Shown piece after piece: positions 19,041 to 42,489 of a DNA stretch of 64,000 nt. The stretch lies in the IMG/VR virus record IMGVR_UViG_3300030390_002408, one strand, 5' to 3'. Numbering within the stretch: position 1 is the stretch's first letter; every line of letters starts with the position of its first letter. Origin of the DNA: a virus. A program made the position numbers and the translations under genes. The notes under the pieces were generated by a model, which was given only the letters and a program-made list of their open reading frames with translations, was not told the DNA's origin and searched no databases.

Positions 19041-20603
19041 TTATTTTTTATTTTTTATATAATCCATAATAGTAATGTCATTATCTCTCCCATAAGCTAC
19101 TCTATCTTTATGGGTTAAACTATCAATATCTTTTTGAGTCATACCTTCACCATCACCATCATCCATTAACTTTTGGGCCATTATTTTAAGTTGTTCTACT
19201 TTTTCATCGTTTGATATATCTTCACTTAAATCCTCATTTTCACCCATAATTTCTTGCTGTTGGTATGCTTTACCACAAGACTTTTCATACAATTTTTCAA
19301 ACCCTGCTTTTCTTTTTTCTAAAAGTTTGATTTCTTTTTGTATATTTTTGACTTTCGTCTTATCCATTAATTCTGATAAGTCTTCATCTTCAGATATTGT
19401 ATTTAATCTTAGTGTTTTAGATTCAATTATTTCAGCTAATGCTTCAATTTTTGCCTCTAATGCTACCACACCTGATGCTCTATCAATTTCAGCTAATTTA
19501 GTATCAATTGTTTCTTTTTTAGGTTTTTTCTTTTTAGGTTTTACCTTTTTAGAATCATGAGATTCAAGATTTTCTTTTACTAATTCAGGTTCTACATCAG
19601 TTGGTTTAACAATATACCCCATACCATAATATGATTTTTCACCTGGTGTAAGTGTTTGTCTAAGTCTTTTTGATTTTTGTTTTGCTTCTTCTTTATCAAC
19701 AAAACTATATAAAGGCTTATCATTACCCTGTCCAATACTACCACCTTTTCTGAAAACCCCAAAATATTTTTTATCTTCAGTAATATTTTTAGATTCTTTT
19801 AATGTTTTTTGATCATCCATCATAGTAGCTTGAACAAATGCTCTAACATTTTTTTCATCTTTAAATGGATCTTCCCATTCAAATTGATCTTCTTTTGACC
19901 ATCTAATAGCTAAATCCATTAAATCATCTTGGTTTGAATCATTGAATTCTTTCTTAGTAGTTTTTTTAACCCAATTTATAAATTGGTTTCTTGATGAACT
20001 GTTAGAAGACTCAAAATATTCTTTATTTTCTTTCAACTTAACTTTCTCCATTTGATCTGATTTGGATGCTTTTAATCCAGGATGTTCATCAGTATAACCA
20101 ACACCTCTTTCTCCAAATTGACCATCTTTAACATAATGAAGTTGATCTTTAGCTAAATTTTTAGCTACAATTTCTTTAACTTCATTAACTGTTTTTTCAG
20201 CATTTTTAGGATCTTTCATTTCAGTGTAGTATCCTTTTAAGAAAGCTTCACCATAAACGTTATTAACATCTTTTTTATCCTTATAATCGAAATTCTTTTC
20301 TTCTAAATCTGTTACTTCTTTAGTTGTTTTCTTTTCTTCAACTTTAGCTTCTTCATTAATAACATCAATATTTTCATTAAATATTTTAAACCAATCAGGT
20401 TGTTCAGTTTTACCTGTAGCTACGCCCCATATGTTTTCAGAAATAATAGACTTTTGTCTTAAGATTTTTTCAGCTTGGTTGAAAGTAGCTATATTATGGA
20501 TGTGATTAGGAAAAGCTTTTTTAGCTTCCTTTAAGAAAATTTCTTTACTTCCTTTACCTTTTTTAATTTGGTTGTATTGTTCTTGTAATGTTTTTCTTTT
20601 CAT
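19041..20603 (-). CDS. Putative internal head/core protein (modular, Lys/Glu-rich)
   Basis: Between portal and protease; VAKNLAKDQLHY motif; many [LIV]-x-E sites (LQE, ISE, INE, LKE, ITE, VKE, LSE). Confidence 0.55.
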   Translation of the reverse strand: MKRKTLQEQYNQIKKGKGSKEIFLKEAKKAFPNHIHNIATFNQAEKILRQKSIISENIWGVATGKTEQPDWFKIFNENIDVINEEAKVEEKKTTKEVTDLEEKNFDYKDKKDVNNVYGEAFLKGYYTEMKDPKNAEKTVNEVKEIVAKNLAKDQLHYVKDGQFGERGVGYTDEHPGLKASKSDQMEKVKLKENKEYFESSNSSSRNQFINWVKKTTKKEFNDSNQDDLMDLAIRWSKEDQFEWEDPFKDEKNVRAFVQATMMDDQKTLKESKNITEDKKYFGVFRKGGSIGQGNDKPLYSFVDKEEAKQKSKRLRQTLTPGEKSYYGMGYIVKPTDVEPELVKENLESHDSKKVKPKKKKPKKETIDTKLAEIDRASGVVALEAKIEALAEIIESKTLRLNTISEDEDLSELMDKTKVKNIQKEIKLLEKRKAGFEKLYEKSCGKAYQQQEIMGENEDLSEDISNDEKVEQLKIMAQKLMDDGDGEGMTQKDIDSLTHKDRVAYGRDNDITIMDYIKNKK

Positions 20604-20604
20604 T

Positions 20605-21468
20605 TTATTCTCCTTTTAATAGATCTTTTATGTCTTTAATATAATCTAAAATTAAATCTGTTGGTTTTACTACTGAATATGAGCCTGGATTGAGAGTATA
20701 GTATTCAGATGTTTCATTTTTAGCATTACTCAACATTTTATAAATATTGTTGATTTCTGTTTCAATTACATCAAATGCCTTAATTCTTTTATCTTGGTAC
20801 TCTTTAGACGTTTCTGCTTCAAATAATTGCTTTACTTCTAAACCTGATTTTTTAATTTTTTTAGGTACTAGAGTATATTTAAATTGTTTTACATAAACAT
20901 TATCTCTAACTCCATCACTACTTGCTTTAGGACCAGGACCTAATGTAGCACCTACTCCTTCTTTAACTTTTTTCTTTTTCTTTAATTTAAAAGCATAAGG
21001 GGTAGCGTATTGCATTCCTGTACCTGGAGTGAATGAAGATGCTCCTACACCCCCACCAGTTGAAGATATTTCTTCTAATTGGTTTTTAATTTGGTTGTAT
21101 TGATCTGGGTAATTTTTTCTAATATGTGTTCTGTATTTATTAAATACATCTTTTAATTTACTTGAAAGATCTCCAATATTAGTATCATCTTCACCTTCTT
21201 TAGTTTTAGAAAGAGTTGATAATGACTTAGCAGCTTTAGATAATAATTTTAAAGATTTAGAAAATGAAGCTAAAGGAACTATTTCATGAGAAATAGATTT
21301 AGTATTTTTATCAACTTTTTCTGTCTTAAAATAGGTAGTAAGATCATCATTAAAGAAATCATTTTCCATATCAATCTCACCATATTGACTGCTTAATCTT
21401 TTAATTAAGCCTGGGTCGACGTCTTTAGGTTTTAATATTTCTTTTAATTTGTATTTAAACTCTCTCAT
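20605..21468 (-). CDS. Putative internal head protein
   Basis: 287 aa; modules start after LKE/LEE/VKE/LFE (EISSTGGG...YATPYAF, EGVGATLGPGP). Confidence 0.5.
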   Translation of the reverse strand: MREFKYKLKEILKPKDVDPGLIKRLSSQYGEIDMENDFFNDDLTTYFKTEKVDKNTKSISHEIVPLASFSKSLKLLSKAAKSLSTLSKTKEGEDDTNIGDLSSKLKDVFNKYRTHIRKNYPDQYNQIKNQLEEISSTGGGVGASSFTPGTGMQYATPYAFKLKKKKKVKEGVGATLGPGPKASSDGVRDNVYVKQFKYTLVPKKIKKSGLEVKQLFEAETSKEYQDKRIKAFDVIETEINNIYKMLSNAKNETSEYYTLNPGSYSVVKPTDLILDYIKDIKDLLKGE

Positions 21469-22321
21469 TTGCTTTTGATAATTCTTCTAAAAGAGTGTGA
21501 TATTGTAGTAAGTCAACTAGATTGTCAGTTTTCATTTTATCAGTTTTACCTAACTCATGGATTAATTTAGATACTTCTTCTAATTTGATTTTAATTACTT
21601 TATCATTAGTTTTAACTATTTGACTTTTTAATTCTTCTTTAAGTTTAATAACTTCAGAATTATAAAAATTTCTTAATTTAGAAGAGCTATCAATAGACTC
21701 AATAAATTCTTTTAATATATTCTTTTGATTTGGGTTTAAGTCAGAGTATTTGTTGTTGAATTTTTCTAATAAAATTTGATATGTTAAGATGCGAAGATCT
21801 TTACCATAAGTTTTAAATTCAGTAATTACATCATCTCCTTTTTCCTTTTTAATAACTCCGGATTGGGTTATATGTTCTAAAAGGGTGGTTTTATTTTCAA
21901 TGTTTTGTTTTGCTGATGTAGGTTTGGATGAATTTGTTATCTCAATTAGAGTATATAATGAAGCTTGGGCTTTATAATCTGTGATTTTTGTTTTAAATAA
22001 ATCTTCTATGTTATAATTCTCTTTTAGGTTTTTAATTAAATTATATTTTTCATTTTTTAATCTAGTCCTATTGAGTTTTTTAGATGACTCAAGTACTGCA
22101 GTTATTACATTATTAGCTTTAACTTCACTTAGATTTTTAGCTTTAAATAAAGTTTCGTATAATTTATACTCTTTCCCCAATTCAGTGTTAACAAAATAAG
22201 TTTTTAAAGTCTTTAATGCTGGAGATTCATTGTTAGCTAAAGTATCAGCTGTGATTCTCTTTACTAGAATTTCAAATAATATTCCAGTATTCTTAAATTT
22301 TGAGTGCTTAATATACATCAA
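21455..22321 (-). CDS. Hypothetical head-morphogenesis-region protein
   Basis: KHSKFKNTGILFEIL N-terminus; follows the portal gene; late motif at 22331-22340. Confidence 0.6.
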   Translation of the reverse strand: MMYIKHSKFKNTGILFEILVKRITADTLANNESPALKTLKTYFVNTELGKEYKLYETLFKAKNLSEVKANNVITAVLESSKKLNRTRLKNEKYNLIKNLKENYNIEDLFKTKITDYKAQASLYTLIEITNSSKPTSAKQNIENKTTLLEHITQSGVIKKEKGDDVITEFKTYGKDLRILTYQILLEKFNNKYSDLNPNQKNILKEFIESIDSSSKLRNFYNSEVIKLKEELKSQIVKTNDKVIKIKLEEVSKLIHELGKTDKMKTDNLVDLLQYHTLLEELSKANERV

Positions 22322-24216: not shown

Positions 24217-24228
24217 TTTAGTTATTTA

Positions 24229-24238
24229 TTATAAATAT
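24229..24238 (-). promoter_or_regulatory. Putative late promoter ATATTTATAA (portal)
   Basis: Motif 12 nt upstream of ATG. Confidence 0.6.
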
Positions 24239-26183: not shown

Positions 26184-26485
26184 TTATTCTTTCGGTATTT
26201 TTTTTCAAAGTCATTAATAGTATCTTTAGCAGATTTAATATCTTTGATTTTAGATTTTGTTTCTTTGATTTTGGTAGAAGTTTTTTGGATATTATCTTTT
26301 ACTTCTTTTTTTTCTTCTTCAATTTTAGAAGTTTTTTCTTGGATTACTTTTACTTCTTCAATTTTACCCTCAATCTTATCTTCAAAATATACTTTGGTTT
26401 TTGATTTTTTCTTTCTAAAAATAAATAAAAGAATAGCTCCTATAAAACCCCCAACCCATAATATAGTTCTCCAAATCTTTTTCAT
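26180..26485 (-). CDS. N-terminally anchored membrane coiled-coil protein (possible i-spanin-like)
   Basis: TM ILWVGGFIGAILLFIF then Lys-rich coiled coil; ATGA overlap with the next gene. Confidence 0.45.
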   Translation of the reverse strand: MKKIWRTILWVGGFIGAILLFIFRKKKSKTKVYFEDKIEGKIEEVKVIQEKTSKIEEEKKEVKDNIQKTSTKIKETKSKIKDIKSAKDTINDFEKKYRKNK

Positions 26486-27021
26486 TATAGTAATTTTTCT
26501 AATTCTGTCTTAATTTTACCTAATTCTTTTAATCTTTTTAGATGTTTTTCTTTTTCATCACCTTTAGCTTTTTTAAACTTATTTAAAACTGATTTTATTT
26601 CTTTTGCGTTTTGAGATAATTCTTCTTGATTTTTAACTAAAGGATCTTTATTACTTTTTTTAGCTCCCTTAGATGCTGCTTTATCTGCTTCATCATCATC
26701 TATATCTTCATTTAAATCATAAGATCCTAAATTATCTAGGAATCCTTGTTTTAACCCTTCAAAATAAGCTTTAAAATCTGGGTTGTTTTGGAATTTATCT
26801 CTTATTTCAGCAAATATAATTTCTCCAGCTTCATACCCCATTTCTTCAATATCAGCTAAACTTATATTTTCATATTCATTAACTAACTCTTTTGTTTTTT
26901 CTAGCTCATCATTAAATTCTCCTTGAGCATTAGTTTTATTATTAATTTCTTCAGCTGATTCTTCTGATAATACTGAAATTATTTCTTCTTTAATGTATTC
27001 TTTTAAGTCTGATTGCTTCAT
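26485..27021 (-). CDS. Putative internal head protein
   Basis: MKQSDLKEYIKEEIISVLSEE leader; VNE/LNE-bounded modules; late-like motif at 27038-27047. Confidence 0.55.
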   Translation of the reverse strand: MKQSDLKEYIKEEIISVLSEESAEEINNKTNAQGEFNDELEKTKELVNEYENISLADIEEMGYEAGEIIFAEIRDKFQNNPDFKAYFEGLKQGFLDNLGSYDLNEDIDDDEADKAASKGAKKSNKDPLVKNQEELSQNAKEIKSVLNKFKKAKGDEKEKHLKRLKELGKIKTELEKLL

Positions 27022-27876: not shown

Positions 27877-27908
27877 TAAATATACGAAAATTATTTTACT
27901 TCTCCAAG
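27877..27908 (-). promoter_or_regulatory. Bacteroidota-type early promoter
   Basis: CTTG-N20-TATATTTA. Confidence 0.6.
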
Positions 27909-29351: not shown

Positions 29352-30332
29352 TTAATATGGTCTAACAGCAGTCACGTTTGTAATAATTTCTCCAGATTTT
29401 TTATCTTTTACTTTATATGTTTCATCATAGGAACTATCAATATCTAAATAATCACCTACCTCCCATTCATCATATGGAGTATCATATTTTCTAGAATCTA
29501 AAGTATATTTAACTTCTTCATTATCCAATTGAATAAATCCTGGTTTTCCAAATCGTTGTTCACCTTCGTCATCACCATAGCCTTTTCTTCTTCTATTATA
29601 ATATTCTTTTACTTTAATTTTTTTTTTACCTTCTTTAAGTTTAGTAGATGCCGATTTAAGAGCTTTATCAAATTTACTTTCATCCATATTACGAAGAACT
29701 CTTTGGTTTTGAGCATTATAATCTTTACCTTTTACAAATTCAATATCTTTTACATCAAATTCCTCTTCATCTTGACTTCTTGAGGAGTATCTATTGAATT
29801 TATCATAACGAGAAGGGTAATTAGGTTCATCATACTCATCATCCATTCTACGACCAGGTCCATGTCTACCTTCTTCTAAATTAGGGTCAAAATCAGGATC
29901 CATAAAATCAGGTTCAGTATTTTCTTCTTCCCACTGTTCTATTTTTTCACTTCTTAATTTATTAATTCCTTCGATGATGCTATCAATAAATTTGTTAATA
30001 TCTTCTTTACTTTCAAATTCAGTATACATCATATCATCAGCAATCTGATCAATAAGATAACCTGCATTTTGGTCTACAATATAATCATCAGGATTTTCTT
30101 TTAAAGAAGCTTTTCTTTCATCCCCAAAAACTAGTTCGTTAAATTCTTCTTTGGACATTTTACCACTGAAATAATCTCTTTCAGCTTGTTCCATTTCAGC
30201 TTTTTTCTGTGCTCTCTTATCTATTTCTGATCCTGATCTTGGAGGCATTCCAGCAGCCATTTCTTCAGCTTCTCTATCTTCTTTTATTAGTTTGCCTTCT
30301 TTAAGGTATTTTTTGAAATTGAATTCGCCCAT
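29352..30332 (-). CDS. Putative internal head protein (modular, acidic)
   Basis: Leader MGEFNFKKYLKEGKLIKE; modules bounded by LKE/LEE/VKE; late motif at 30355-30364. Confidence 0.6.
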   Translation of the reverse strand: MGEFNFKKYLKEGKLIKEDREAEEMAAGMPPRSGSEIDKRAQKKAEMEQAERDYFSGKMSKEEFNELVFGDERKASLKENPDDYIVDQNAGYLIDQIADDMMYTEFESKEDINKFIDSIIEGINKLRSEKIEQWEEENTEPDFMDPDFDPNLEEGRHGPGRRMDDEYDEPNYPSRYDKFNRYSSRSQDEEEFDVKDIEFVKGKDYNAQNQRVLRNMDESKFDKALKSASTKLKEGKKKIKVKEYYNRRRKGYGDDEGEQRFGKPGFIQLDNEEVKYTLDSRKYDTPYDEWEVGDYLDIDSSYDETYKVKDKKSGEIITNVTAVRPY

Positions 30333-31636: not shown

Positions 31637-32374
31637 TTACCAAAATCCTGAGAATGATGATTTTAAACCTAATAATTTAGCATATCTTGGTAGTCTACAA
31701 GACCAATATCCTGCTTTTGTTCTATCTTTCTTTTGAGAGCATTTATGGCGAGCAGCAAAAGCTGTTCTTGCTTTTTTATCATTGATTTTAGCTCTTAAGC
31801 CTCCAGACCCAAATCTAACTGTTTTTACTTTTTTAGTTTTAGGATCTTTTACATAAACCTTATATGCTTTACCTCCTGATGAGTCACGCATTGGTTTTCC
31901 AATTGGTTTATTTGCATTTTTACCTTTTTTCTTTTTCTTTTTAGCTTCATTTAAAGACATATTATCTATTTCATCGCGAACCCATTCTTTTTCACCGGGT
32001 CCTAATTGATCATAATCCATACCAAATTCTGATTGGGCTATTTCATCATAATCCATTTCATTTAATTGAATAGGAAAATCTAATGGAACTTTTTTACCTT
32101 CAAACATACCAAAATGGCCTAAGTCAGTTTCAGTTAACATTTCTAAATCATCACCTACTACATCAATAATTCCCCTAGAGTATAAAGATCTTGCTTCAGC
32201 TATTAAATTAAAGTAAGATTCAGAACCCGCACGGTATAAATGGTCTGTTAGCGGCCTATCATTGTCTATATGGTATTTTAAACCCTCAGACAATATCTCC
32301 TTCGGAGCTACGTTTTCATTGAGTACTAACAAAGTACTTTTAGTTTTACAAGTATTACATCCGCAATTACACAT
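31637..32374 (-). CDS. Modular putative head protein with basic C-terminal domain
   Basis: MCNCGCNTC N-terminus; three LNE boundaries; C-terminal YKVYVK..VRFG..ARTAFAARHKC..AGYWSC; late motif at 32389-32398. Confidence 0.55.
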   Translation of the reverse strand: MCNCGCNTCKTKSTLLVLNENVAPKEILSEGLKYHIDNDRPLTDHLYRAGSESYFNLIAEARSLYSRGIIDVVGDDLEMLTETDLGHFGMFEGKKVPLDFPIQLNEMDYDEIAQSEFGMDYDQLGPGEKEWVRDEIDNMSLNEAKKKKKKGKNANKPIGKPMRDSSGGKAYKVYVKDPKTKKVKTVRFGSGGLRAKINDKKARTAFAARHKCSQKKDRTKAGYWSCRLPRYAKLLGLKSSFSGFW

Positions 32375-32397: not shown

Positions 32398-33960
32398 TTA
32401 TACAATTGATATTTGATTTCCCCCTGATGTTCTAAATCTGTGAGAATATTTTTTAGTATCTGTAATTTCTCCTCCTTGTACTGTATTTATATCAGTTTTT
32501 AATTGGAACCCTCCAGCTTTGGAACTATTTATAATTTCAGGATCACTATTATGGGATGTAGTTGAACCTGCAGGAAATATAGTTGGGTCACTTGAAGGTG
32601 AACCATCATTGTTTCCTTTTAATTTAAAAAAAGTAGGATTAACTCCTGATAGAGATAAGCCGTAGCTTACTAAATCTAAAATTGCATCCCTAGAATTATT
32701 TCTTTTACTATTATCTAGTAAAAAATTCATTAATTTAAAAGAACCATATGTTGCTATTAACTGTTTTAAATCTTCAGGTAATTTATTCCAACCATCTCCA
32801 GATAATTTAATATCTTCCCCTTGAACTTTATTTAAGAATTTATCTTGTTGGATTTGAGTATTTTCTTTTGCTGTTTCTATACTCCACCCAAGTTCATCTT
32901 TAGTTAAGTTATATTCTTGGTCTCTTAATTTACCATCATCCCCTTTAAAATTTGCAAAGTATGATTTTGCTCTTCCAGGTTGGGATGATGATTCTTTAAG
33001 TGAAATTGAAACTAAGTCATTATCTTTACCTCCCCAATTATTTACAAATAAGCCATTTAACCCTTCTAAAGTATCTGGGATTTGGGGTGGATTTTTAATT
33101 TTAATGTAAATATCCCCAGGATTCCATTTATCTGCGGGAATTTTACATATTTGTTGACCCATTGCTCTAATTTCATTAAAGACACCATCTCGGATAAATT
33201 CTTCCCCAGGGTAATCTTGATTAACTTTTGAAGCAATAGAATAAGGATTATTAAAATTTTTAAATTTATTTACTGGGAATTTTTCTAGGTCTGAATTATT
33301 CAGGATTTTAAGTAAAGATTTAATAGCTCCTAATGCTTTACCATCTATACCTTTAAATAAAGATGAGTTATCAATAGAATCATTTAAAATATCTACATTA
33401 GATGAGATAGTTTCTTGATTAAAGGGTTGTAAATTTTTTCCACTATTTAAAATATTATACATTAGAATTACTAATCCTTCTTTTTGATCAGTATCTGTAT
33501 CGAATGGGCTTGAACCTAAACCTTTTATGTTTATTTTATATTTAACACCATCAATAGTAACATTAAATGCAGGGCCTATATCTTCATTACTAAAATTATT
33601 ATCACTTATAATATATTTTTTAGGTAAGTTTTGAGTGATTTTTTTACCAATTTCCCTTCTTTCTTTTCTATCTCTATCACCTACTCCCTTAACATAAAAA
33701 GAATAATTTTTCCCTCCACCTGTTTTTACAGTAGTAACATTATCTAAACCTGATATTGATTGGATATCTTGTTTTAATTGTATAATATTATCTGGTAAGT
33801 TAGGGGAATCTTCTTCTGATACTTCATTTAAATCTATAGGAAATCCTATTTCACTTAATATAGACTCTAACAATAAAACATCCTGATCATTATTCATGTC
33901 AGGATATCCTTTAGGAAATTTATATGCTATTTTATTTAAATATTTTGTAATACTATCCAT
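32398..33960 (-). CDS. PD-(D/E)xK-like nuclease with N-terminal leader module
   Basis: QKE, DKWNPGDIY and SISLKE motifs. Start placed at MDSITKYL (33960); leader FPKGYPD...LLLESILSE...LNE. Confidence 0.55.
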   Translation of the reverse strand: MDSITKYLNKIAYKFPKGYPDMNNDQDVLLLESILSEIGFPIDLNEVSEEDSPNLPDNIIQLKQDIQSISGLDNVTTVKTGGGKNYSFYVKGVGDRDRKERREIGKKITQNLPKKYIISDNNFSNEDIGPAFNVTIDGVKYKINIKGLGSSPFDTDTDQKEGLVILMYNILNSGKNLQPFNQETISSNVDILNDSIDNSSLFKGIDGKALGAIKSLLKILNNSDLEKFPVNKFKNFNNPYSIASKVNQDYPGEEFIRDGVFNEIRAMGQQICKIPADKWNPGDIYIKIKNPPQIPDTLEGLNGLFVNNWGGKDNDLVSISLKESSSQPGRAKSYFANFKGDDGKLRDQEYNLTKDELGWSIETAKENTQIQQDKFLNKVQGEDIKLSGDGWNKLPEDLKQLIATYGSFKLMNFLLDNSKRNNSRDAILDLVSYGLSLSGVNPTFFKLKGNNDGSPSSDPTIFPAGSTTSHNSDPEIINSSKAGGFQLKTDINTVQGGEITDTKKYSHRFRTSGGNQISIV

Positions 33961-33961
33961 G

Positions 33962-34417
33962 TTAAGCTTCTGTTTCTGTTTCTTCACTACCCCCAATATC
34001 TTCAATATCTCCTCCTAAGTCATCATCTCCACCTTCCTCTTCTTCTTCAGTTGATTGGATACCGTATCTTAAGATTCGAGAAATTGCTTCAGCAGCATGT
34101 TGTTCTTCAGGTAAATTTAATAAGTAATATTTTTTACCTTCAACTTGAGCTATCCAACTTCTTTTATTGTAAATTAAATAGAAGTTTTGATCATTTTTTA
34201 AATTAATACGAAATGTAGTTGGTCTTGGAGCTACCCAATCTATAGATGCTAGGAAATTATCAAAGTCACTAGTTAGTAAGTCAACTAAAATTGCTTTTAA
34301 TTCTGGGAATTTGGTTAACTCATCGTATTCAATAGCAGCTGTTTCTGCTTTTTGTTTACTTTTGTAAATTTGAGGAATTAGTATCCTAATTTTTTCTCGT
34401 AATTCAGCAGCTGTCAT
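33962..34417 (-). CDS. Hypothetical protein with acidic tail
   Basis: 151 aa; MTAAELREKIR leader. Confidence 0.6.
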   Translation of the reverse strand: MTAAELREKIRILIPQIYKSKQKAETAAIEYDELTKFPELKAILVDLLTSDFDNFLASIDWVAPRPTTFRINLKNDQNFYLIYNKRSWIAQVEGKKYYLLNLPEEQHAAEAISRILRYGIQSTEEEEEGGDDDLGGDIEDIGGSEETETEA

Positions 34418-36441
34418 TATTTAGATTTTTTTAATGATTCCCCAAATTGTGATGATTGAGTTCCACCTTGAGGTTTAATTAAGTCATCAGCATAAGCTAT
34501 AAGTTGTTCTACTTTCCCAAATGCAGGTGTTGCTTTAAGTTCTCCACTTTCAATGTCAATCAATTTATATAAAGCTCTTCCAGGTTTACCCTTATAAGTT
34601 GGGGATACTTTTTCTAATTCAAATCTATACTCATTATATCTAGATGGATGTTCTTTGGGCCATTCTTCTACATCTTCATTTAATGCTTTTTTTTTCAAAT
34701 TTTTAACAATTTTTTCAGCTAATTGAGAGTATTTAGACTCACCAAAAGGTGATCTACCTTCTTTCTTTTTTCGTACTAAAGCATTCCAATTAGATAAATC
34801 ATACTCATCCCAAGCTTCAACTTCTACATTATTAAATGTTTTTTCTTGACCCATAACAGGTTTTGAAGCTAAATAATGCATTTCATTTTGAGTTTCTTCA
34901 AAAAATCTATCTACTTCTTCTTGGGAAGGTATTTGAGATTTTTCTTCACTTATTGCTTGATCATAAGTTAAAGGTTTACCTCTTAATTTAGATATTTTAG
35001 CATCAATTTTATTTAATTCTCTACCATACCTGTCTGAAATTGGCCCCCCTTCTGGTTCAGCTTCTTGCTCCATATCTCGCATTAATTGATTGCGTTTTCT
35101 TTCAAGTGATGATATTTGAGCATCATTATTTTTTCCTTTGTAGGCTTTTTGAACTGCTTTACCATACTCACTACCAAAATCTTTTTTCTTATCTTTAGCA
35201 GCTCTCATCTTCATTAAAATAGGATCATTATTGTCTATTTCACTTATTGCTCCTTCTTCACTAGCAACATCAACCATAGCATCAATTTCAGGCTCTTTTA
35301 ATTCGAAGTCTAAATAATGTTTAGCTGAAGTTATCATACTTTCAGATTTAATTATTTTTGACTGCCACCAATGTGGTAGATCAACTTCTCCTTGACCTTC
35401 AAATTTATCCATCATTTGATATAACTCCATAGCATATTTTCCAATTCTATATAAATTGGCTTTTAACATATGAGGTTCATCATCTTGATGTCCTAAATCT
35501 AAGTCTTCTTTTACATTTTGATATTTAGGGATTTTGTAACTGTTAGTTTTATAATTACTATCTGCTAAATAATACTCTACATAGTTTGATGGTATTTTTT
35601 TTCCTTCTTTATTAGTTGTGAAATCAAAATCATCAAGAGTTTTTAATTGTGTTTGATTTCCATCTTTCTCAACACCTAATATAATAGAATTATATTTATC
35701 ATCTTTTGTTCCATCTGCTTTATTTACAACACCTTTATCTGCTCTTTTACCTGTTGTAAATTGCTTCATGTCAGCTTTTGCCCTTCTTTTATTAACTAAA
35801 CTAATAGGGGGTGGAGTAAGTGTTTTATCTTCTTTTATTGAAGAATGTTCTTGGGATGCTAATAAGATAGTATCTAAATCTTTATTACTCATTAGTATTT
35901 CTCCCCCACTCAATAAATCAAAACTAAATTCTTTATTTAAACCTACTTTTAATGGTGAACCTTCTAATTCAAATGTGTTAAGATAGTTATCATCAACATT
36001 AGAGGAAGTAAATGTTCCATCATTGGAAAATCTATTAAGTATGGATACTATTGAATCTAGAAACTTTTCAGGGTTTTGGTTATATTCCATTTCCATAGTT
36101 TCTCTTTCAGAATACGAATCATCAACTTCAATTTCATCAATAATAGATTTTTCTATAGCAGCACCTCTCTTTTTTTCATAGTCTGAGAGTTTACCATCTT
36201 TGTTTAGGTCTGCTTTTTTAGGATTTTGTAAAGCAGTTTTTATCATCTCTCTTAATTTTGACTTAGGGTCCATATTTTCTAGTTGTTTTTTAGCTAAATT
36301 AGTAGCACGTCCATACATAACTTTCTCAGCATCCTTACCATAACGTTTAGTAAGTTCACGTTTATTTTTTTTCATATCCATGATGATATCTTCACGTTTA
36401 GATACTTCAGCTTTTGTAAGTTTACGTTCGTTTAACTTCAT
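34417..36441 (-). CDS. Modular putative internal head polyprotein
   Basis: 674 aa; modules bounded by LNE/IDE/IKE/VKE/ISE; EF-hand-like DLNKDGKLSDYE; GHQDDEPHM..LPHWWQSKI module. Confidence 0.55.
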   Translation of the reverse strand: MKLNERKLTKAEVSKREDIIMDMKKNKRELTKRYGKDAEKVMYGRATNLAKKQLENMDPKSKLREMIKTALQNPKKADLNKDGKLSDYEKKRGAAIEKSIIDEIEVDDSYSERETMEMEYNQNPEKFLDSIVSILNRFSNDGTFTSSNVDDNYLNTFELEGSPLKVGLNKEFSFDLLSGGEILMSNKDLDTILLASQEHSSIKEDKTLTPPPISLVNKRRAKADMKQFTTGKRADKGVVNKADGTKDDKYNSIILGVEKDGNQTQLKTLDDFDFTTNKEGKKIPSNYVEYYLADSNYKTNSYKIPKYQNVKEDLDLGHQDDEPHMLKANLYRIGKYAMELYQMMDKFEGQGEVDLPHWWQSKIIKSESMITSAKHYLDFELKEPEIDAMVDVASEEGAISEIDNNDPILMKMRAAKDKKKDFGSEYGKAVQKAYKGKNNDAQISSLERKRNQLMRDMEQEAEPEGGPISDRYGRELNKIDAKISKLRGKPLTYDQAISEEKSQIPSQEEVDRFFEETQNEMHYLASKPVMGQEKTFNNVEVEAWDEYDLSNWNALVRKKKEGRSPFGESKYSQLAEKIVKNLKKKALNEDVEEWPKEHPSRYNEYRFELEKVSPTYKGKPGRALYKLIDIESGELKATPAFGKVEQLIAYADDLIKPQGGTQSSQFGESLKKSK

Positions 36442-37815: not shown

Positions 37816-37819
37816 ACTA

Positions 37820-38251
37820 TTATTTTTTATAACCTCTAGATAGAGTATTTAATTTGCCTTCTGTTTTTGGAGGTTGTTTAGGATCTATAACTTTAGGTTG
37901 TATGTTATCGATTAAACCTTGTATATAATCAATTTGAATTGTTAAGTGACCCTTATTAATTTTACTATTATCTATCATGTGTTTTGTGAAGGGGACAAGA
38001 GGTTTTAGCATTTCAGATTTAGGTAAAATAGAAGGAATTATATTATTTTTTAAATCTTCAATACACCTAATGTAACACTCTAAATCTTCTCTTGAATATA
38101 TATTTTCAATATATCTTTCTTTTACTACATTTAAAAATTTTTCAATATCTATCATTACTTTTTCTTCTTCAGTAAATGATGTTATTGGTTTAGGATTATG
38201 AACATTATCACCTCCCCTATAACCACCTGCTAGTTTATTTAATTTACTCAT
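37820..38251 (-). CDS. Hypothetical protein
   Basis: 143 aa; similar N- and C-terminal peptides (KLNKLAGGY / KLNTLSRGY). Confidence 0.55.
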   Translation of the reverse strand: MSKLNKLAGGYRGGDNVHNPKPITSFTEEEKVMIDIEKFLNVVKERYIENIYSREDLECYIRCIEDLKNNIIPSILPKSEMLKPLVPFTKHMIDNSKINKGHLTIQIDYIQGLIDNIQPKVIDPKQPPKTEGKLNTLSRGYKK

Positions 38252-41200
38252 AACCCTAATTCTTTTAATTGTCTTATAGTATCACTAGCTGATGTATGTA
38301 ATATTCCTACTCCCCCACTTGCTATCCATTGATTAATGTTATTTTCTCTATCATCAATTAATATAGCATTTTCTTGAGCATAGTTTTTCTTATTTCTTGA
38401 AAATGCTAGTTTTAAAGGTGTACCTGGTAAGTTATTTTTAACCCATAATCTTTTACCTAATCTAGACTCATTATTAACTGAAGGAGATGATAGTAGAATT
38501 GGTTTGTATTTACTAATATAATCCCAATATTCTTTTCCATCTTCCATCCAGGGCATTCCAACCCAAAATTTAACTCCAATTTGATTATCAATTAGATCCC
38601 AGAATTTCTTTTTTCCATTTTCTTTTTCATATTCAGAAGGAGAAACACCATTTGAGAATTTTTTAAATCTTCCATCAAAGTTAGTAATAACTCCATCCAT
38701 ATCAGAGTATATGATGTATTCCATATCTTTTCCTTTGGGTGAAGATACGACCTCTTCTTCAGGTATCCTAGTTTTTCCTAATTCTTCTTCTAAACCTTGT
38801 GCTAATTCTCTTGCATATTGATTTAAACCAAATGGATCTTTATTTTTCTTTTCATTTAATTTAAGCATTGAATCTATTTTTCCTTGAATTAAGGAGGTGT
38901 TAAATGAAAGAGGAAAATGAAGTTGAGATATAATTTTTTGAATTCTCTTATTATCTTTAGGGTTGTGGGATTTATAATTCATAGCACTTGAAGTACTATT
39001 TTTATCTAACATGTTTTTATAGTTTTCAACATATTCAGGAGTAACTATATCATCAACTATTTGGGGAATATTTTTTTTATCTTCATCCCACATATTCTCA
39101 ACCTCTTTATAAGACAAAATTCTAAACTTTTTTTGATTTCTTGATGAATTATGAATTTTTAATTTAATTAAATGTTTAAATTTATCTATATTACTAAGTT
39201 TTTTTAATAGTTTAAATACCTTTAAATATTCAAGATCAGATATTTGGATTTCTTTAACATAAGGAGTTAAGGGGAGAGATGAAGTTTTAATTAATTCTTC
39301 TCTTTCATCCATAGAAAACCATTTTTTTCCTTTTTTACGATGAGATTTGTTTTTAGTCTTTGCAAAAAGAATATCTTTTGTTGGGGTGATTTTAATATTA
39401 TTGGAAATTTTATCCCCATCTAAAGTAATCCTTGCATCTATATCTTCCCATTGAGAATCTCCACCAGCTAACTTAAAATTATAAAATTTGGAAACAACAT
39501 CTAAATTTTTATCCCTAGTTGTAGATATTCCTCCACTTATATTTGAAGCTTTAATATATTCATCTTTTAAAATTTTAAAAATTCCTGTATTCCCTTCAGG
39601 ATTTAAAATAGTAAAGTGATATAAATCACCTACTTGTTTAGCTTCATTTATATTTTCATTTAATACTGTATCAGTATAACCTCTAAAAGCTAAATTACCA
39701 TCCTGATAAGCTTCAGCTTCAATTGAAGTTAAATGATCATCTTCTTGTGTGTTAGTTGTAGTAATATCTTCTAATCTACCTTCTAAATTTTGAATATGGT
39801 GTATCATTTCATGAGCAAATGATCTTACTATATCTTTTGGATGTCTTCCTTCAGTAAATAAAACTATAGTGTTAGTATTAGGATCATAGTAAGCAGTTTT
39901 ACCAAAGAAATTTTTAGCATTATCTTGATTACCATGCTTGAATATTACTTTAGGTAAAGGAATAATATTCATTTTTTGATTTAACATATATTTAGTTAAA
40001 TCTTTTATTTGTTGTTTATAATCTATATTTTTAGAGTATGTAGCATTTTCATTAATTGAAGGTAAACTTAATGCTTTAGTCCTTTTAGACCATATATTAA
40101 TAATTTCCTTTTTTTCTTCAGATGTTAAATTTTGTAAATCTAAGTAATCATCAATTACATTCCTTAATGGTTTTTTTTCTTTTTTAGCTCTAAAATACAT
40201 TCCTTGTAAATTAGCATCTATTTCTTTTTCTAATTTGAAGTAATCTGATTTAGGTAAAAGTTCAGCATCAATCATATTCCTTAATGTTGAATCCTTAGCC
40301 ATGTATTTGCCTGGTTTTTCTTGGAATCCTTCACCATGAGTTAGATGTTCAATCTCATGACGTATAATATCTTTTAAATCCATAGAAATTTTACTCCAAT
40401 GTTTAGGTAAAAATTCAGGATCAATTTCAAATTCTACTGATATTGAGTCTTCTTCACTATAAGCTCCTCCATCAGTTTTATAATCATTGAAATTTGGGGA
40501 TTGCTTTAATGTAGCTTTGATTTCAATTTCATCATCTTCAAATGTGTAAGTGTTATTAAATTCAATTAATTCATTAGATATATTAGATTTCCAATTATTA
40601 AAGATATCACTTGAAATACGATTTGATATTGTATCATATCTTCCTTCGTTTAATGATTCTTTTTTTAATTCTGGGTGGAATTTCATCCAAACTTCTTCAG
40701 CATCGGGTTTAATTGACTCTCCATCAACCACTACTTCTACAGGGTAGACTTTAGCATCTTCACCATACCAATAATTTATTTTATATCCTCCTTCTTCTGT
40801 TAATTCTACAATTAAACCTCTATCATAATCTTCACTTTCAGCTTGTAAAAATATTTTTTTACCTCTAGGAAGTACTAAAGAAGTCTTATCTAAAATATCT
40901 TCGTTTAGGGGTTGTTTTTCATCTCCTACAGGGACTTGTCTAATATCTTTAGTATCATCAAAGTTTGGTGGGTAAGGATTATCAAACCCCCCAATTAATA
41001 TATTATCATTTTCTATAGAAAGATCAAATGTTGATGGTGATACATTTATAAAATAATTAAGGTAATAGTCTATCCTATCTTTTAAATCTAAAGACTCATT
41101 TAATGTTTTATTTTCGTCTACTGAAGGTGATAGAATTTGAAATACTTCTTCAATGTCATCTTTAGATAATTCAGATGGGAGGTACTTTTTAAATTCTTCT

Positions 41201-41694
41201 ACATTTCGGGTTTTGAGAGCTAATCTAGCATTAGTTCCACTCATTCCTTTATTATTAGTAACTATAGGTTTTAAAACCATATTAGGATATTTTTCCATAC
41301 CCTTTGATCTACTTCCCATATCTTTAAAATCATCTTCATTATCCTTTCTAGCTCCTATTACCCAATAAATAGATTGACCTGGGTTAGATTTAGCGTAGCT
41401 ATAAATTTCTCCAATTGGTGGTTTTTTAGAAGGGATTATTTCAACCTTCATTGGAAGATATTTAGTATAAATTTCCCACACTAAAACAGCTTCAGCTTGG
41501 TCTACCCCATCTCTTTCTTTAGATCCTACTAATATTTTTAAATTAGTTATTTCTGGGTTTTGTTGTAAGGCTGTTTTTACTACTTCAAAATGACCTCCAG
41601 TAGGGGGTTTGAATCCTCCACCATATAAAGCTACTACTTCTTCTTCGCCTTCATTTAAAATACTATCTACTAAGTATTGAGTTAATTTATTCAT
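38248..41694 (-). CDS. Polyvalent multidomain protein: HxGH-class nucleotidyltransferase, two zincin metallopeptidase-like domains, ART-like domain, HAD nucleotidase
   Basis: GGFKPPTGGH...MSGT; HEIEH..E; HEMIHH..E; LYHFT..ISTTR..EREE; SDMDGV..ILSS..K..LIDD. Confidence 0.75.
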   Translation of the reverse strand: MNKLTQYLVDSILNEGEEEVVALYGGGFKPPTGGHFEVVKTALQQNPEITNLKILVGSKERDGVDQAEAVLVWEIYTKYLPMKVEIIPSKKPPIGEIYSYAKSNPGQSIYWVIGARKDNEDDFKDMGSRSKGMEKYPNMVLKPIVTNNKGMSGTNARLALKTRNVEEFKKYLPSELSKDDIEEVFQILSPSVDENKTLNESLDLKDRIDYYLNYFINVSPSTFDLSIENDNILIGGFDNPYPPNFDDTKDIRQVPVGDEKQPLNEDILDKTSLVLPRGKKIFLQAESEDYDRGLIVELTEEGGYKINYWYGEDAKVYPVEVVVDGESIKPDAEEVWMKFHPELKKESLNEGRYDTISNRISSDIFNNWKSNISNELIEFNNTYTFEDDEIEIKATLKQSPNFNDYKTDGGAYSEEDSISVEFEIDPEFLPKHWSKISMDLKDIIRHEIEHLTHGEGFQEKPGKYMAKDSTLRNMIDAELLPKSDYFKLEKEIDANLQGMYFRAKKEKKPLRNVIDDYLDLQNLTSEEKKEIINIWSKRTKALSLPSINENATYSKNIDYKQQIKDLTKYMLNQKMNIIPLPKVIFKHGNQDNAKNFFGKTAYYDPNTNTIVLFTEGRHPKDIVRSFAHEMIHHIQNLEGRLEDITTTNTQEDDHLTSIEAEAYQDGNLAFRGYTDTVLNENINEAKQVGDLYHFTILNPEGNTGIFKILKDEYIKASNISGGISTTRDKNLDVVSKFYNFKLAGGDSQWEDIDARITLDGDKISNNIKITPTKDILFAKTKNKSHRKKGKKWFSMDEREELIKTSSLPLTPYVKEIQISDLEYLKVFKLLKKLSNIDKFKHLIKLKIHNSSRNQKKFRILSYKEVENMWDEDKKNIPQIVDDIVTPEYVENYKNMLDKNSTSSAMNYKSHNPKDNKRIQKIISQLHFPLSFNTSLIQGKIDSMLKLNEKKNKDPFGLNQYARELAQGLEEELGKTRIPEEEVVSSPKGKDMEYIIYSDMDGVITNFDGRFKKFSNGVSPSEYEKENGKKKFWDLIDNQIGVKFWVGMPWMEDGKEYWDYISKYKPILLSSPSVNNESRLGKRLWVKNNLPGTPLKLAFSRNKKNYAQENAILIDDRENNINQWIASGGVGILHTSASDTIRQLKELGL

Positions 41695-42489
41695 CTATTT
41701 TAAAAATTGATTAATTCTCATTTGGGCTTCTTCTTTAGACATAGTATATTCAATTACATCATCTATAAACTCATCATTTAACATTGATTGAATTTCACCT
41801 CTATCTTTGGCATTATTTTCTTCTGATTTCTTCTGTTGAGCAGGTGTTTTAGGTTTAGTTCCTTTGGGGGTAAATGGGGTTAGATATTTTTGTATTATTT
41901 TATCTATATCCTTAATCTTATCATCTAATGTATTGGCAACTGCTACAAAATTAGAGCCAAATAAATTGGCATATTTTTCTAGGTTTTGGGTTACACTCTT
42001 CCAAGTTCTCATTACAATAGCTGGAGCTAAACTTCTATCTTCACCTTTGGATTTTTCAAATCTATTTTGATTTTGTTGGAGTGATCTTTCTAAATCCGTA
42101 TAAACATAAAGCATAAATACATTGTATCCTGCTTCTTCTAACTGTAATTTTAATTCTGAAGTTTGTTTAAATGAAGCTGCTGTACCATCTAGTATAAATG
42201 ACTCTTTACCTTCAATTGTAGATTGAATATTACCTTTAAATTCTTTATTAGCATCAGCCATGGATTTAGCTTGACTACTTCTTTCTTCAGGGGTTGCATT
42301 TTTTAAATCTAATGTAATGTTAGCTTTTTTTAGCTTATCTATAAAGATACTATCAATATTTAATATTTTTATTCCCCCTAAATCTAAACCTTTAAGTACA
42401 TATCCTTTACCTGCTCCCGGGGCCCCAGCTAATATAATTGCTTTGGGGTTACCTTGAGATTCTTTTAGTAATTGAACTAAACTTATCAT
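41695..42489 (-). CDS. Zeta-toxin-like / AAA_33 P-loop kinase
   Basis: LAGAPGAGKG, NID, ILDGT, GYNVFMLYV and R motifs; leader MISLVQLLKE. Confidence 0.75.
   Translation of the reverse strand: MISLVQLLKESQGNPKAIILAGAPGAGKGYVLKGLDLGGIKILNIDSIFIDKLKKANITLDLKNATPEERSSQAKSMADANKEFKGNIQSTIEGKESFILDGTAASFKQTSELKLQLEEAGYNVFMLYVYTDLERSLQQNQNRFEKSKGEDRSLAPAIVMRTWKSVTQNLEKYANLFGSNFVAVANTLDDKIKDIDKIIQKYLTPFTPKGTKPKTPAQQKKSEENNAKDRGEIQSMLNDEFIDDVIEYTMSKEEAQMRINQFLK

Follow-up and report, generated by a model that had tools for sequence, protein, structure and literature searches.

A candidate head-cargo system with portable leaders and protease-type motifs at module borders in a T4-like Bacteroidota phage

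Are the leader-bearing proteins encoded beside the head genes of this phage carried in its capsid, cut by the prohead protease, and injected into the host? The window analysed here (the whole stretch of 64,000 nucleotides, IMG/VR record IMGVR_UViG_3300030390_002408) comes from an uncultured T4-like phage, the host of which is a marine Bacteroidota. In T4, the protease gp21 has the specificity L/I-X-E, and the propeptides that act as capsid-targeting sequences (CTS) are 10–19 amino acids long (PMC9026906); the T4 CTS is MKTYQEFIAE (PMC8442874; preprint 10.1101/2021.01.19.427310). The original prediction read positions 19,041 to 42,489 of the window as a plug-in system of modular polyproteins that are packaged and cut by the prohead protease, an interpretation that as a whole is partly supported by the analysis below.

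Head module and its protease motifs

The head module is homologous to that of T4. The order of its genes, portal, three core-position genes, S77 protease, acidic scaffold, and Gp23-type major capsid protein, is that of T4 genes 20-67-68-21-22-23. The components are:

19041..22321, reverse strand: three proteins (520, 287, and 288 amino acids) in the portal-protease interval, placed by gene order at the position of the T4 core proteins gp67 and gp68
18432..19034, reverse strand: prohead protease, Peptidase_S77 (T4 gp21 family), with VLIE at residues 5-8
17257..18222, reverse strand: acidic scaffold at the gp22 position, rich in [LIV]xE, with the C-terminal motif RFQKLAGITK
15585..17222, reverse strand: Gp23-type major capsid protein (Pfam Gp23, 4.4e-76)

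The protease scores above the family cut-off of Pfam PF03420 (E 1.2e-30) and matches the head maturation protease family PHROG 207 (1.8e-59). It carries LIE8 and LSE21, and the sites E7/E20 are kept in 14 of 14 relatives. The N-terminal propeptide of the major capsid protein comprises residues 1-61 (17040-17222) and contains four conserved L/V-x-E sites, LLE9, LLE36, ILE52, and V-x-E61, which are kept across 21 relatives. The motifs that the original prediction had placed near the N-termini of the capsid protein (LLE9) and the protease (LIE8, LSE21) are present and conserved in all relatives, and they match homologous sites of T4 gp21 substrates: the capsid site after E61 (VME/T) aligns with LTE65/A of T4 gp23, and the LIE of the protease VLIE aligns with LLIE of T4 gp21. 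The scaffold lies between the protease and the capsid protein, as gp22 does in T4, and its E8 and E18 are kept in 14 of 16 relatives.

The generic motif [LIV]xE is enriched in the scaffold (23 observed, 14.7 expected, p 0.003), in the 520-aa and 288-aa head-cluster proteins (20 against 10.1 and 15 against 6.9), both of which have an N-terminal site in 100% of relatives, and in the 160-aa and 245-aa proteins described below. The signal is less clear for the protease (9 against 5.4, p 0.06), and there is no significant enrichment in the portal, terminase, and tail proteins of the window. The same shuffle test applied to T4 finds enrichment in the gp21 substrates gp22, gp21, and gp68 and none in gp17-20. 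Among the proteins of the region, L.E is the gapped dipeptide with the strongest over-representation (91 against 53.2 expected, z 5.2), and both LNE (15 against 3.4) and LKE (20 against 6.2) are in excess, whereas these enrichments are absent from the 43 proteins encoded outside the region and head genes (tail, baseplate, replication, and others). The anticipated enrichment of [LIVM]-x-E was accordingly found region-wide for L.E, LNE, and LKE, but not for generic [LIV]xE in the 1148-aa and 674-aa proteins (20 against 20.9 and 11 against 11.7), where it is confined to the [LI]NE/[LIV][NKS]E subset. Of the 28 proteins of the region and head, 19 have a site within the first 20 residues, as do 13 of 43 others, the latter being close to chance. 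The N-terminal motif by itself is not diagnostic, since the primase and exonuclease also keep an N-terminal [LIV]xE in 70-77% of relatives.

Portable leaders and the proteins that carry them

The leaders are 10-20 residues long and fall into four classes: A, MKKSELKxxI...L[SN]E; B, MxNFDLKKYLAEGKLLKE; C, MISLVQLLKE; and D, MNxLTKFLVDxILNE. Class A ends in L-[SN]-E, class B has Y-L-A-E and L-(L)-K-E, class C ends in L-K-E, and class D in L-N-E. The shorter proteins considered as cargo are:

26485..27021, reverse strand: 178-aa protein, leader A (20 aa, MKQSDLKEYIKEEIISVLSE; 26962-27021), which ends in L-[SN]-E in 32 of 32 relatives
29352..30332, reverse strand: 326-aa protein, leader B (MGEFNFKKYLKEGKLIKE; 30279-30332), late-promoter-like box upstream at 30351-30361
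30469..30900, reverse strand: 143-aa protein, leader B (MGDFNLKKYLAEGKLLKE; 30847-30900), with only the leader in common with the 326-aa protein
31153..31635, reverse strand: 160-aa protein, very basic, leader MDRIKKIVKEILTE, [LIV]xE 4 against 1.0 expected (p 0.007)
31637..32374, reverse strand: 245-aa protein with three LNE (residues 20, 106, and 143), [LI]NE 3 against 0.09 expected, promoter-like box at 32385-32395
32398..33960, reverse strand: protein of about 520 aa, conserved YKFPKGYPDMNN head followed by LLE/LSE/LNE
33962..34417, reverse strand: 151-aa protein, leader-A-like N-terminus, corresponding to the C-terminal module of a polyprotein of phage immuto
36617..37201, reverse strand: 194-aa protein, acidic, leader A (MKKSELKEMIRQAMLE) and, by motif comparison, the C-terminal KIAGIIK motif of the scaffold
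41695..42489, reverse strand: 264-aa Zeta-toxin-like P-loop kinase (Pfam Zeta_toxin, 1.5e-18), leader C (42460-42489), promoter-like box at 42498-42508
57581..57934, reverse strand: 117-aa protein, leader A, in the baseplate region beyond the range given above, promoter-like box upstream

The N-termini quoted in the original prediction were located at 26485-27021, 36617-37201, 31153-31635, 41695-42489, 38248-41694, 30469-30900, 34417-36441, and 19041-20603. The same gene cluster also encodes an AAA_28 kinase and an FAD oxidoreductase, both without a leader.

The leaders are portable and are exchanged between proteins. Leader B (18 aa), which was found in at least 119 IMG/VR stretches, heads 126 distinct proteins that form 69 unrelated cargo clusters; 149 of its 159 copies are N-terminal, and conservation stops directly after L-x-E/LLKE. 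Leaders A and B each occur on many protein families, and in the family of the 178-aa protein the sequences diverge beyond leader A. The kinase has leader C in most phages and leader B in one relative (L121), with the junction at LLKE; its Zeta_toxin match begins at residue 10, and E10 is present in 34 of 40 relatives. The leader-end motif is conserved in 100% of relatives in the 178-aa, kinase, and polyprotein families. The two leader-B copies of the window differ at many synonymous positions, which indicates that selection acts on the peptide, and the DNA upstream of leader-B copies is not conserved past the promoter box. Leaders stay in frame within fused open reading frames.

The list of leaders in the original prediction holds in that they are portable, end at [LI]-x-E, and are swapped on one cargo; two of its entries are weak. 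The MKLNE leader is only 3-5 residues long in relatives, and in the family of the 151-aa protein the leader Glu is present in only 35% of members and is replaced by Asp in some. Some relatives have no leader. In immuto, the homologue of the 151-aa protein forms the last module of an 841-aa polyprotein, positioned behind an internal SKSELKEIMLE (HSP 1-119 against immuto 672-790), and the immuto orthologue of the 160-aa protein retains IIKE/ILSE. Phage immuto is the sole cultured relative. In the 245-aa protein, the LNE motifs part a head rich in Cys from a middle module, and this in turn from a basic module at the C-terminus; E20 occurs in 90% of relatives, and PHROG 7595 matches residues 144-227 only, starting directly after LNE143. 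The protein encoded at 32398..33960 probably starts at the ATG at 33960 and not at the TTG at 34005, because relatives begin at an N-terminus of the MDSITKYL type. Its earlier designation as a nuclease is unsupported, as it has no family or PDB match.

Several features are common to the leader-bearing proteins and the head. The C-terminal motif of the KIAGIIK/KLAGIIK type (49 of 52 occurrences C-terminal) is found on scaffolds and on leader-A and leader-B proteins. In relative L236, the homologue of the 520-aa head-cluster protein is fused to a leader-B cargo protein, and in relative L014 a module of the 674-aa type lies inside a protein of the portal-protease interval. The protease gene of immuto is flanked by small leader-bearing open reading frames, and three of five long, incomplete leader-B contigs contain an S77 protease. 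The box ATATTTATAAYAAA precedes the start codons of both cargo and virion genes at a distance of 5-18 nt, with 11 matches where 1.7 are expected. This common late-promoter-like box is counted as support for the cargo reading.

Polyproteins with motifs at module borders

The two longest proteins of the region are modular:

34417..36441, reverse strand: 674-aa modular protein with homology-block borders at IDE103, VKE312, LKE383/ISE401, and ISE499
38248..41694, reverse strand: 1148-aa polyvalent protein consisting of a leader and enzyme modules, with [LI]NE at every border, arranged as follows
residues 1-15: leader
residues 16-200: adenylyltransferase (Foldseek PPAT/NMNAT, E 1e-6)
residues 201-265 and 266-350: two small modules
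residues 351-549: module with HEIEH
residues 550-684: zincin with HEMIH, predicted fold (VIA)
residues 685-948: cassette
residues 949-1148: linker and HAD 5'-nucleotidase (PHROG 2643 nucleotidase, 9e-24)

The [LI]NE motifs of the 1148-aa protein end at residues 15, 200, 265, 350, 549, 680, 684, and 948, which makes eight where 1.26 are expected (p<0.0002). In the AF2 prediction, residues 17-190 have pLDDT values above 93 and LNE15 is in a loop behind the leader helix. LNE200 and LNE265 are at or inside segments with pLDDT below 50, and LNE350 and INE549 adjoin low-pLDDT stretches between confidently folded domains. The best VIA matches of residues 553-685 include PprI (Z 8.3), Wss1 (8.0), SPRTN (7.2), and ArdC (7.0); although the Z values are only moderate, zincin-type metallohydrolases make up essentially the whole top 50. 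The sequence of this module scores only 0.0015 with Pfam DUF6782. Residues 685-948 have no Pfam, PHROG, or PDB sequence match, just five weak unannotated homologues, and uninformative Atlas hits, so that the ART-like activity once proposed for them finds no sequence or structure support. In the 674-aa protein, HSP starts cluster at residues 307-312 and 396-399 and HSP ends at 100-108, 386-401, and 494-502; its modules occur in reverse order in relatives L116 and L134. The internal motif positions given in the original prediction for the modular proteins were verified, and the signal is above chance.

The motif falls where homology between relatives breaks off and where linkers are predicted. 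The IMG/VR relatives of the polyprotein have more than 25 module architectures, and the points at which modules have changed order, been inserted, or been split lie exactly on [LIV]-x-E. As had been predicted for module gain and loss, internal homology starts on P3 of [LIVM]xE at 10.3% of breakpoints, where 1.5% is expected (about seven times chance), whereas the controls xD (2.1%) and xK (3.3%) have no peak like that of Glu. When breakpoints are scored without reference to the motif, the residue that ranks first is Glu at +2. The module families that start directly after the motif number at least 12. The cassette of residues 678-945 is inserted exactly at an LQE/KK site of relative L160, and alternative cassettes enter one LQE/KK site, each with [LI]xE flanks. 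The motif moves together with the module that follows it and could therefore in part be a conserved domain N-terminus.

In many relatives the polyprotein begins at the adenylyltransferase, without a leader, and in several the nucleotidase is a leaderless stand-alone gene. These cases contradict the generalization that any domain flanked by such sites is packaged. Either packaging does not depend on the leader in all cases, or these enzymes also work unpackaged.

Proposed cargo pathway, its alternatives, and known systems

The locus is, with moderate probability, a head-cargo system of a T4-like Bacteroidota phage, in which leader-tagged proteins are loaded into the head, cut by the head protease, and injected. 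Late-expressed proteins would carry one of the leaders of classes A-D, which may act like the T4 capsid-targeting sequence and draw them into the scaffolding core of the prohead. The S77/gp21-type protease would then cut after the Glu of [L/I/V]-x-Glu, so that the scaffold and core proteins are degraded and the capsid propeptide and leaders removed. It would also cut exposed [LI]-N/K/S-E joints of the long polyvalent proteins, leaving separate enzymes free in the head to enter the cell with the DNA. The putative freed cargo includes the adenylyltransferase, the two HExxH modules (for one of which a zincin fold is predicted), the HAD nucleotidase, the Zeta-like kinase, and basic DNA-binding-like proteins.

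It is possible, but doubtful, that the proteins are ordinary cytoplasmic late or auxiliary proteins, whose leaders would dock to another partner (a chaperone, a host hub protein, or a membrane site) and whose border L-x-E would reflect a helical-capping or linker preference. The leaderless polyproteins, nucleotidases, and AAA_28 and FAD enzymes agree with such a role, as does the occurrence of N-terminal [LIV]xE on non-virion proteins. Such a role offers no account of why breakpoints favour Glu over Asp or Lys, why the motif is identical to the aligned maturation sites of the capsid protein and protease, why leader-bearing proteins have the C-terminal motif of the scaffold, why fusions with head-cluster proteins occur, or why cargo and virion genes have a promoter box in common. 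Polyvalent proteins, packaged or not, might instead be processed by their own zincin-like metallopeptidase modules, the [LI]NE motifs being zincin sites or plain linkers. The 1148-aa protein does have two HExxH modules, its residues 553-685 are predicted to fold close to the metallopeptidase domains of Wss1/SprT, IrrE, and ArdC, and autoproteolysis by such domains has been proposed (PMC5512222). Self-processing is nevertheless distinctly unlikely: the motif also ends leaders or marks borders in proteins without HExxH (the leader-B, 245-aa, and 674-aa proteins), it is over-represented in scaffold and core proteins, and it fits both the specificity recorded for S77 proteases and the T4 sites with which it aligns.

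Mobile promoter and gene-start cassettes are known in T4-type phages, and the genes here have no Shine-Dalgarno sequences and start with A-rich codons. The leaders could on these grounds be cassettes at the level of DNA, either gene-start recombination modules or translation-initiation regions for a host without Shine-Dalgarno signals, with a functionless peptide. This is highly improbable given that copies in the same genome diverge synonymously with the peptide kept, without upstream conservation past the promoter box, that leaders are kept in frame in fused reading frames, and that conservation stops exactly at Glu.

The head-cargo reading has counterparts in several known systems. In the giant phages phiKZ (gp175), 201phi2-1, and SPN3US (gp245), many proteins inside the head are cut after Glu by a protease related to gp21, which removes propeptides and sometimes makes several cuts per protein; unlike here, the papers cited describe neither families of portable leaders common to different proteins nor enzyme chains jointed between modules (PMC9026906, PMC5694885, PMC7411985). 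The Glu cut site of the giant-phage proteases is behind a short motif of their own (PMC9026906). The multi-enzyme virion 'polyvalent proteins' of phages and conjugative elements (Iyer, Burroughs, Anand, de Souza, Aravind 2017; PMC5512222) resemble the 1148-aa protein in that several unrelated catalytic domains, including a zincin-like metallopeptidase, are on one chain and are shuffled between relatives, and in that their genes adjoin virion genes and their products are predicted to go in with the DNA. The differences here are the domain set, with a PPAT/NMNAT-fold adenylyltransferase and a HAD 5'-nucleotidase, and the prohead-protease motif at each joint together with a CTS-like leader at the chain start, which points to processing by the head protease and not by the protein's own peptidase. 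The closest counterparts are the internal proteins IPI, IPII, IPIII, and Alt of T4, for which the S77 protease family, the head gene order, and the aligned capsid and protease cleavage motifs are alike. In both phages, N-terminal propeptides (putative here) of 10-20 residues ending in [LI]-x-E occur on unrelated proteins, and the cargo, here a candidate one, includes enzymes and basic proteins. Apart from length, the aromatic-[LI]-A-E ending, and position, the leaders have no detectable homology to the sequence of the T4 CTS, and no homologue of a T4 IP or Alt was seen in the Pfam and PHROG scans. Here there are at least four leader classes against one in T4, and the number of cargo families is far larger, leader B by itself accounting for 69 clusters. 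One and the same cargo can have different leaders, long chains of several enzymes have the motif at every internal joint, and the host is a Bacteroidota. A plug-in capsid-targeting sequence on diverse internal proteins has been described in T-even phages (PMC3012670, PMC9026906). Since both CTS-tagged internal proteins and polyvalent proteins are already described, the system proposed here would be an extension of known ones and not a new principle.

Head genes of the window and of its relatives

All genes of the window are encoded on the minus strand, the GC content is about 30%, and Shine-Dalgarno sequences are absent. The order of the head module corresponds to that of T4 genes 20-67-68-21-22-23.

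Head module of the window
24238-25878, minus strand, large terminase
22351-24216, minus strand, portal
Between portal and protease, minus strand, three unassigned proteins of 288, 287 and 520 aa, placed by gene order
18432-19034, minus strand, prohead protease of the Peptidase_S77/gp21 family (Pfam 1.2e-30)
17257-18222, minus strand, acidic scaffold
15585-17222, minus strand, Gp23-type capsid protein (Pfam 4.4e-76)

Among isolates, Flavobacterium phage vB_FspM_immuto (immuto; NC_055915) is the closest, with a syntenic gene order and a capsid protein 57% identical to that of the window. It was also the sole match in a tblastn search with the 674-aa protein. When phage records were searched by megablast with 23 kb, a single match of 82 bp was returned. 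Related terminases are encoded on at least 598 IMG/VR stretches, the best 80 of which are 76-88% identical to the terminase of the window, and the clade is therefore common in metagenomes. A SegE-type GIY-YIG homing endonuclease (44259-44714; Pfam 1e-27) is positioned between the tail and primase genes; immuto also encodes one, annotated there as 'NAD synthetase'.

A ATATTTATAAYAAA box that recalls the T4 late promoter TATAAATA precedes the start codons of two groups of genes by 5-18 nt: those for portal, neck, tube and baseplate proteins, and the putative cargo genes 41695-42489, 31637-32374, 29352-30332 and 57581-57934 (11 matches versus 1.7 expected). The box is probably the late promoter of the clade, and its proximity to the start codons indicates very short 5' leaders.

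ATATTTATAAYAAA boxes upstream of virion and cargo start codons
1949-1959, minus strand, box
3607-3617, minus strand, box
12010-12020, minus strand, box
24225-24235, minus strand, box
30351-30361, minus strand, box
32385-32395, minus strand, box
42498-42508, minus strand, box
55311-55321, minus strand, box
57941-57951, minus strand, box

Candidate protease-site motifs and leaders of late proteins

The original prediction held that late proteins carry similar leaders and internal [LIVM]-x-E motifs recognized by the prohead protease. All the leaders and motif positions that it quoted were found in the window, and the observation is confirmed well beyond chance. In an unbiased k-mer test, L.E was the most over-represented gapped dipeptide of the region proteins (91 versus 53.2 expected), and LNE (15 versus 3.4) and LKE (20 versus 6.2) ranked near the top of the tripeptides that had real counts. 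The 43 proteins encoded elsewhere than in the region or the head genes, among them tail, baseplate and replication proteins, lacked these enrichments. Tested per protein, generic [LIV]xE was enriched in the scaffold (23 versus 14.7), the 520-aa (20 versus 10.1) and 288-aa (15 versus 6.9) proteins, as well as in the 160-aa and 245-aa proteins. The expected enrichment thus holds for L.E across the region, but not for generic [LIV]xE in the 1148-aa polyprotein (38248-41694; 20 versus 20.9) or the 674-aa protein; the [LI]NE subset, in contrast, is exceptional in the 1148-aa protein (8 observed versus 1.26 expected) and in the 245-aa protein (3 versus 0.09). The known gp21 substrates of T4, used as a positive control in the same shuffle test, were enriched in [LIV]xE (gp22, 20 versus 10.1; gp21, 9 versus 3.7; gp68, 6 versus 2.5), whereas T4 gp17, gp18, gp19 and gp20 were not.

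The T4 protease gp21 cleaves after the Glu of L/I-X-E, propeptides of the capsid-targeting sequence (CTS) type have 10-19 residues, and 'LIE-9' of gp21 is a candidate autocleavage site (PMC9026906). The T-even internal proteins are diverse, with the CTS as their sole common part (PMC3012670). The capsid propeptide of the window phage has L/V-x-E at four places that are conserved in 21 relatives; the last, V-M-E61/T, corresponds in the alignment to L-T-E65/A, at which T4 gp23 is matured. Similarly, VLIE8 of the protease aligns with LLIE9 of T4 gp21. A sequence in the 287-aa protein (20605-21468, residues ~133-165), NQLEE/ISSTGGGVGASSFTPGTGMQYA, closely resembles that of the capsid maturation site, LVME/TSSTGGGNGAGSFTAGTGAQWA (15585-17222, residues ~57-90), and the equivalent locus of immuto contains a 73-aa ORF with VLEE/MSTTGAVGGY. 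The 287-aa protein may be a core protein mimicking the capsid N-arm.

The leaders are shared by proteins that are otherwise unrelated. In the 80 terminase-anchored loci and immuto, leader A (MKKSELKxxI...) is found on at least eight unrelated families and leader B (MxNFDLKKYLAEGKLLKE) on more than 20. A degenerate DNA pattern for FDLKKYLAEG, used to search IMG/VR for leader B, matches at least 119 stretches, and 149 of the 159 copies stand at a protein's N-terminus. The leader-B proteins comprise 126 distinct sequences in 69 clusters with no similarity detectable past the leader, and positional conservation collapses directly after L-x-E/LLKE. The other ten copies are internal, fused in frame with the Met retained, and one of them follows a homologue of the 520-aa protein that adjoins the protease gene. 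The Zeta-toxin-like kinase (Pfam 1.5e-18), the domain of which begins at residue 10, carries leader C (MISLVQLLKE) in most phages and leader B in one locus (L121), with the junction at LLKE. No description of leaders of these classes was found in the literature on Flavobacteria phages.

Two of the listed leaders are weak: MKLNE is too short to serve for targeting, and members of the 151-aa family do not conserve the Glu. The terminase, portal, two membrane proteins, AAA_28 kinase, FAD oxidoreductase, 190-aa zinc-ribbon protein and Hc1-like protein of the region are leaderless. The last is a 55-aa ORF (36444-36611) matching histone H1-like Hc1 (Pfam PF07432, E 3.9e-5), with a position conserved in relatives; it was rejected as leader-bearing since its N-terminus is part of the domain. 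With its listed TTG start, the 535-aa ORF (32398-34005) overlaps with the gene upstream of it; its relatives begin at an internal ATG (MDSITKYL..., 33960), giving about 520 aa. An ORF of one relative (L043:339-860) has a leader-B-like start followed about 35 residues on by a leader-A sequence (..NKMKKSELRKIIKE), and is either a tandem-tag protein or has a mis-called start.

The scaffold ends in the motif R-F-x-K-L-A-G-I-I-K, which also terminates acidic proteins that start with leader A or B, such as 36617-37201, and is C-terminal in 49 of 52 occurrences. This tail may be coat-binding. Scaffolds with the motif are encoded in the window (17257-18222) and in loci L005-L074, L084, L094 and L097 of relatives; one occurrence in immuto is near an N-terminus (MKKQILSEQFRRMQKLAGIITE).

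Module borders and domains of the polyproteins

The prediction that module breakpoints of related genomes coincide with the motif was borne out. Internal BLAST homology starts exactly on P3 of [LIVM]xE in 10.3% of 920 breakpoint clusters versus 1.5% expected, with 2.1% for the control motif [LIVM]xD and 3.3% for [LIVM]xK. In motif-free scoring, Glu is the most enriched residue at +2 from the homology start, 2.8-fold for starts on L, I, V or M. At least 12 distinct module families start directly after the motif, and the 80 further loci contain more than 25 polyprotein architectures. In immuto, the HEIEH and HEMIH modules have the opposite order to that in the 1148-aa protein, and each starts directly after x-x-E (SLNE/GRYD in the window, VMAE/GRYD in immuto). 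The nucleotidase of immuto is a separate gene with its own leader, and the 151-aa protein of the window has its counterpart in an 841-aa immuto protein, as the C-terminal module that follows an internal SKSELKEIMLE. The 1148-aa protein has residues 678-945 inserted precisely at the LQE/KK site of locus L160, where other phages have a zinc-ribbon cassette; each cassette is flanked by [LI]xE. The blocks of the 674-aa protein border IDE103, VKE312, LKE383/ISE401 and ISE499, and their order is reversed in two loci (L116, L134). Because the motif travels with the downstream module, its conservation may be partly structural. The LNE codons TTAAATGAA, which read TAA-ATG in another frame, were rejected as former gene boundaries: they are the commonest codons, and AAC occurs at two joints.

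Short peptides recur at the ends of polyprotein modules (1148-aa protein, residues 949-970; many loci in L082-L161): K-D-P-F-G-L-N-x-Y-A-R-E-L-A-x-G-L-E-E, A-L-S-L-P-L-F-E and G-K-A-A-P-[FY]-G-S-G-Y, the last of which is also present in the 160-aa protein (31153-31635). Such peptides may serve as linkers or for docking.

AF2 models were calculated for residues 1-350 (56-sequence alignment) and 340-700 of the 1148-aa protein. In the first, leader helix 3-13 is followed by a loop containing LNE15 and a confident domain 17-190 (pLDDT >93), and LNE200, LNE265 and LNE350 are at or within segments of pLDDT <50. Foldseek matched domain 17-190 to PPAT/NMNAT/NaMNAT adenylyltransferases (E ~1e-6, TM to target 0.74-0.80). 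The second model consists of two compact domains (mean pLDDT 89), with confidence dips at 340-348 and 551-553 adjoining LNE350 and INE549. Foldseek found nothing at E<=0.001 for this two-HExxH-module model; its top rows, large toxin metalloproteases, were disregarded for their low probability and low TM-score. In a wide VIA search, domain 553-685 (HEMIH) aligned with PprI (Z 8.3), Wss1 (8.0), SPRTN (7.2) and the ArdC antirestriction protein (7.0), which predicts a zincin metallopeptidase-like domain. The C-terminal 160 residues match the 5'(3')-deoxyribonucleotidase PHROG (9e-24). With its adenylyltransferase-fold, zincin and nucleotidase domains, the 1148-aa protein fits the 'polyvalent protein' class (PMC5512222).

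The cargo labels 'ART-like' and 'nuclease' were dropped: for module 685-948, the ESM Atlas and 5.8-billion-protein searches were uninformative and the PDB sequence search gave no match, and the 535-aa protein had no match in the PDB sequence search. The cargo cluster also contains the AAA_28/NadR-like P-loop kinase (27038-27574; PHROG 'thymidylate kinase', 1.3e-23) and the FAD/NAD oxidoreductase (27891-29225). Taken with the adenylyltransferase and nucleotidase, these two enzymes hint at a pathway related to nucleotides or NAD.

Proposed cargo loading and comparison with known systems

On balance, it is probable that T4-CTS-like loading and prohead-protease processing act together here, in an extended form that covers several leader classes as well as protease-jointed polyvalent proteins. 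The CTS-like leaders would load cargo into the head, and the prohead protease would process leader-bearing proteins and the joints of the polyvalent proteins. However, in many relatives the polyprotein starts at MSKIIAAYGGGFKPP, leaderless and overlapping the stop of the kinase gene, and several have a stand-alone nucleotidase without a leader, which argues against the loading reading or limits it.

Several further observations link the leaders and modules to the head: the protease gene of immuto is flanked by small leader-bearing ORFs, a 674-aa-type module lies inside a protein of the portal-protease interval in one relative (L014), and the S77 protease is present in three of five long leader-B contigs, which are incomplete. 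An N-terminal site is present in 100% of relatives in the capsid protein, scaffold, protease, 520-aa, 288-aa and leader-A 178-aa proteins, kinase and leader-bearing polyproteins, and in 0% in portal, tail, neck and membrane proteins; values of 70-77% for primase and exonuclease show that the N-terminal motif alone is not diagnostic. Less probable readings are autoprocessing of the polyproteins by their zincin modules, a docking function of the leaders unrelated to the capsid, and leaders that are DNA-level cassettes. The two leader-B genes of the window differ at many synonymous positions, which indicates that the peptide is what is conserved.

For loading by CTS-type leaders, the chance is about even that such leaders, together with the S77-site joints, make up a general and readable 'loading grammar'. 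Its users would be T4-like Bacteroidota phages of a marine clade that is abundant and uncultured. At least four address tags, interchangeable with one another, would load more than 70 families of cargo, cassettes would be inserted, reordered and released at protease sites, the injected proteome would be predictable, and the head protease would process polyvalent proteins. The predicted injected proteome would include a ready-made set of adenylyltransferase, kinase and nucleotidase, which may act in counter-defence related to nucleotides or NAD. If true, proteins injected ahead of gene expression could be read from sequence as candidate anti-defence or take-over factors, the polyvalent proteins would be tied to a defined processing enzyme, and new short tags would be available for loading foreign proteins into capsids. 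The idea is directly testable, because the cultured immuto (host Flavobacterium sp. LMO8) carries the same leaders.

The principle of CTS loading is already known from T4, and polyvalent proteins are a known class (Iyer et al.). What is new relative to both is the expansion, the multiplicity and exchangeability of the leaders, and the presence of the protease motif at every joint. If the reading holds, the capsid-targeting principle of T4 would be no T-even peculiarity, but a widespread and much expanded cargo system of environmental phages.
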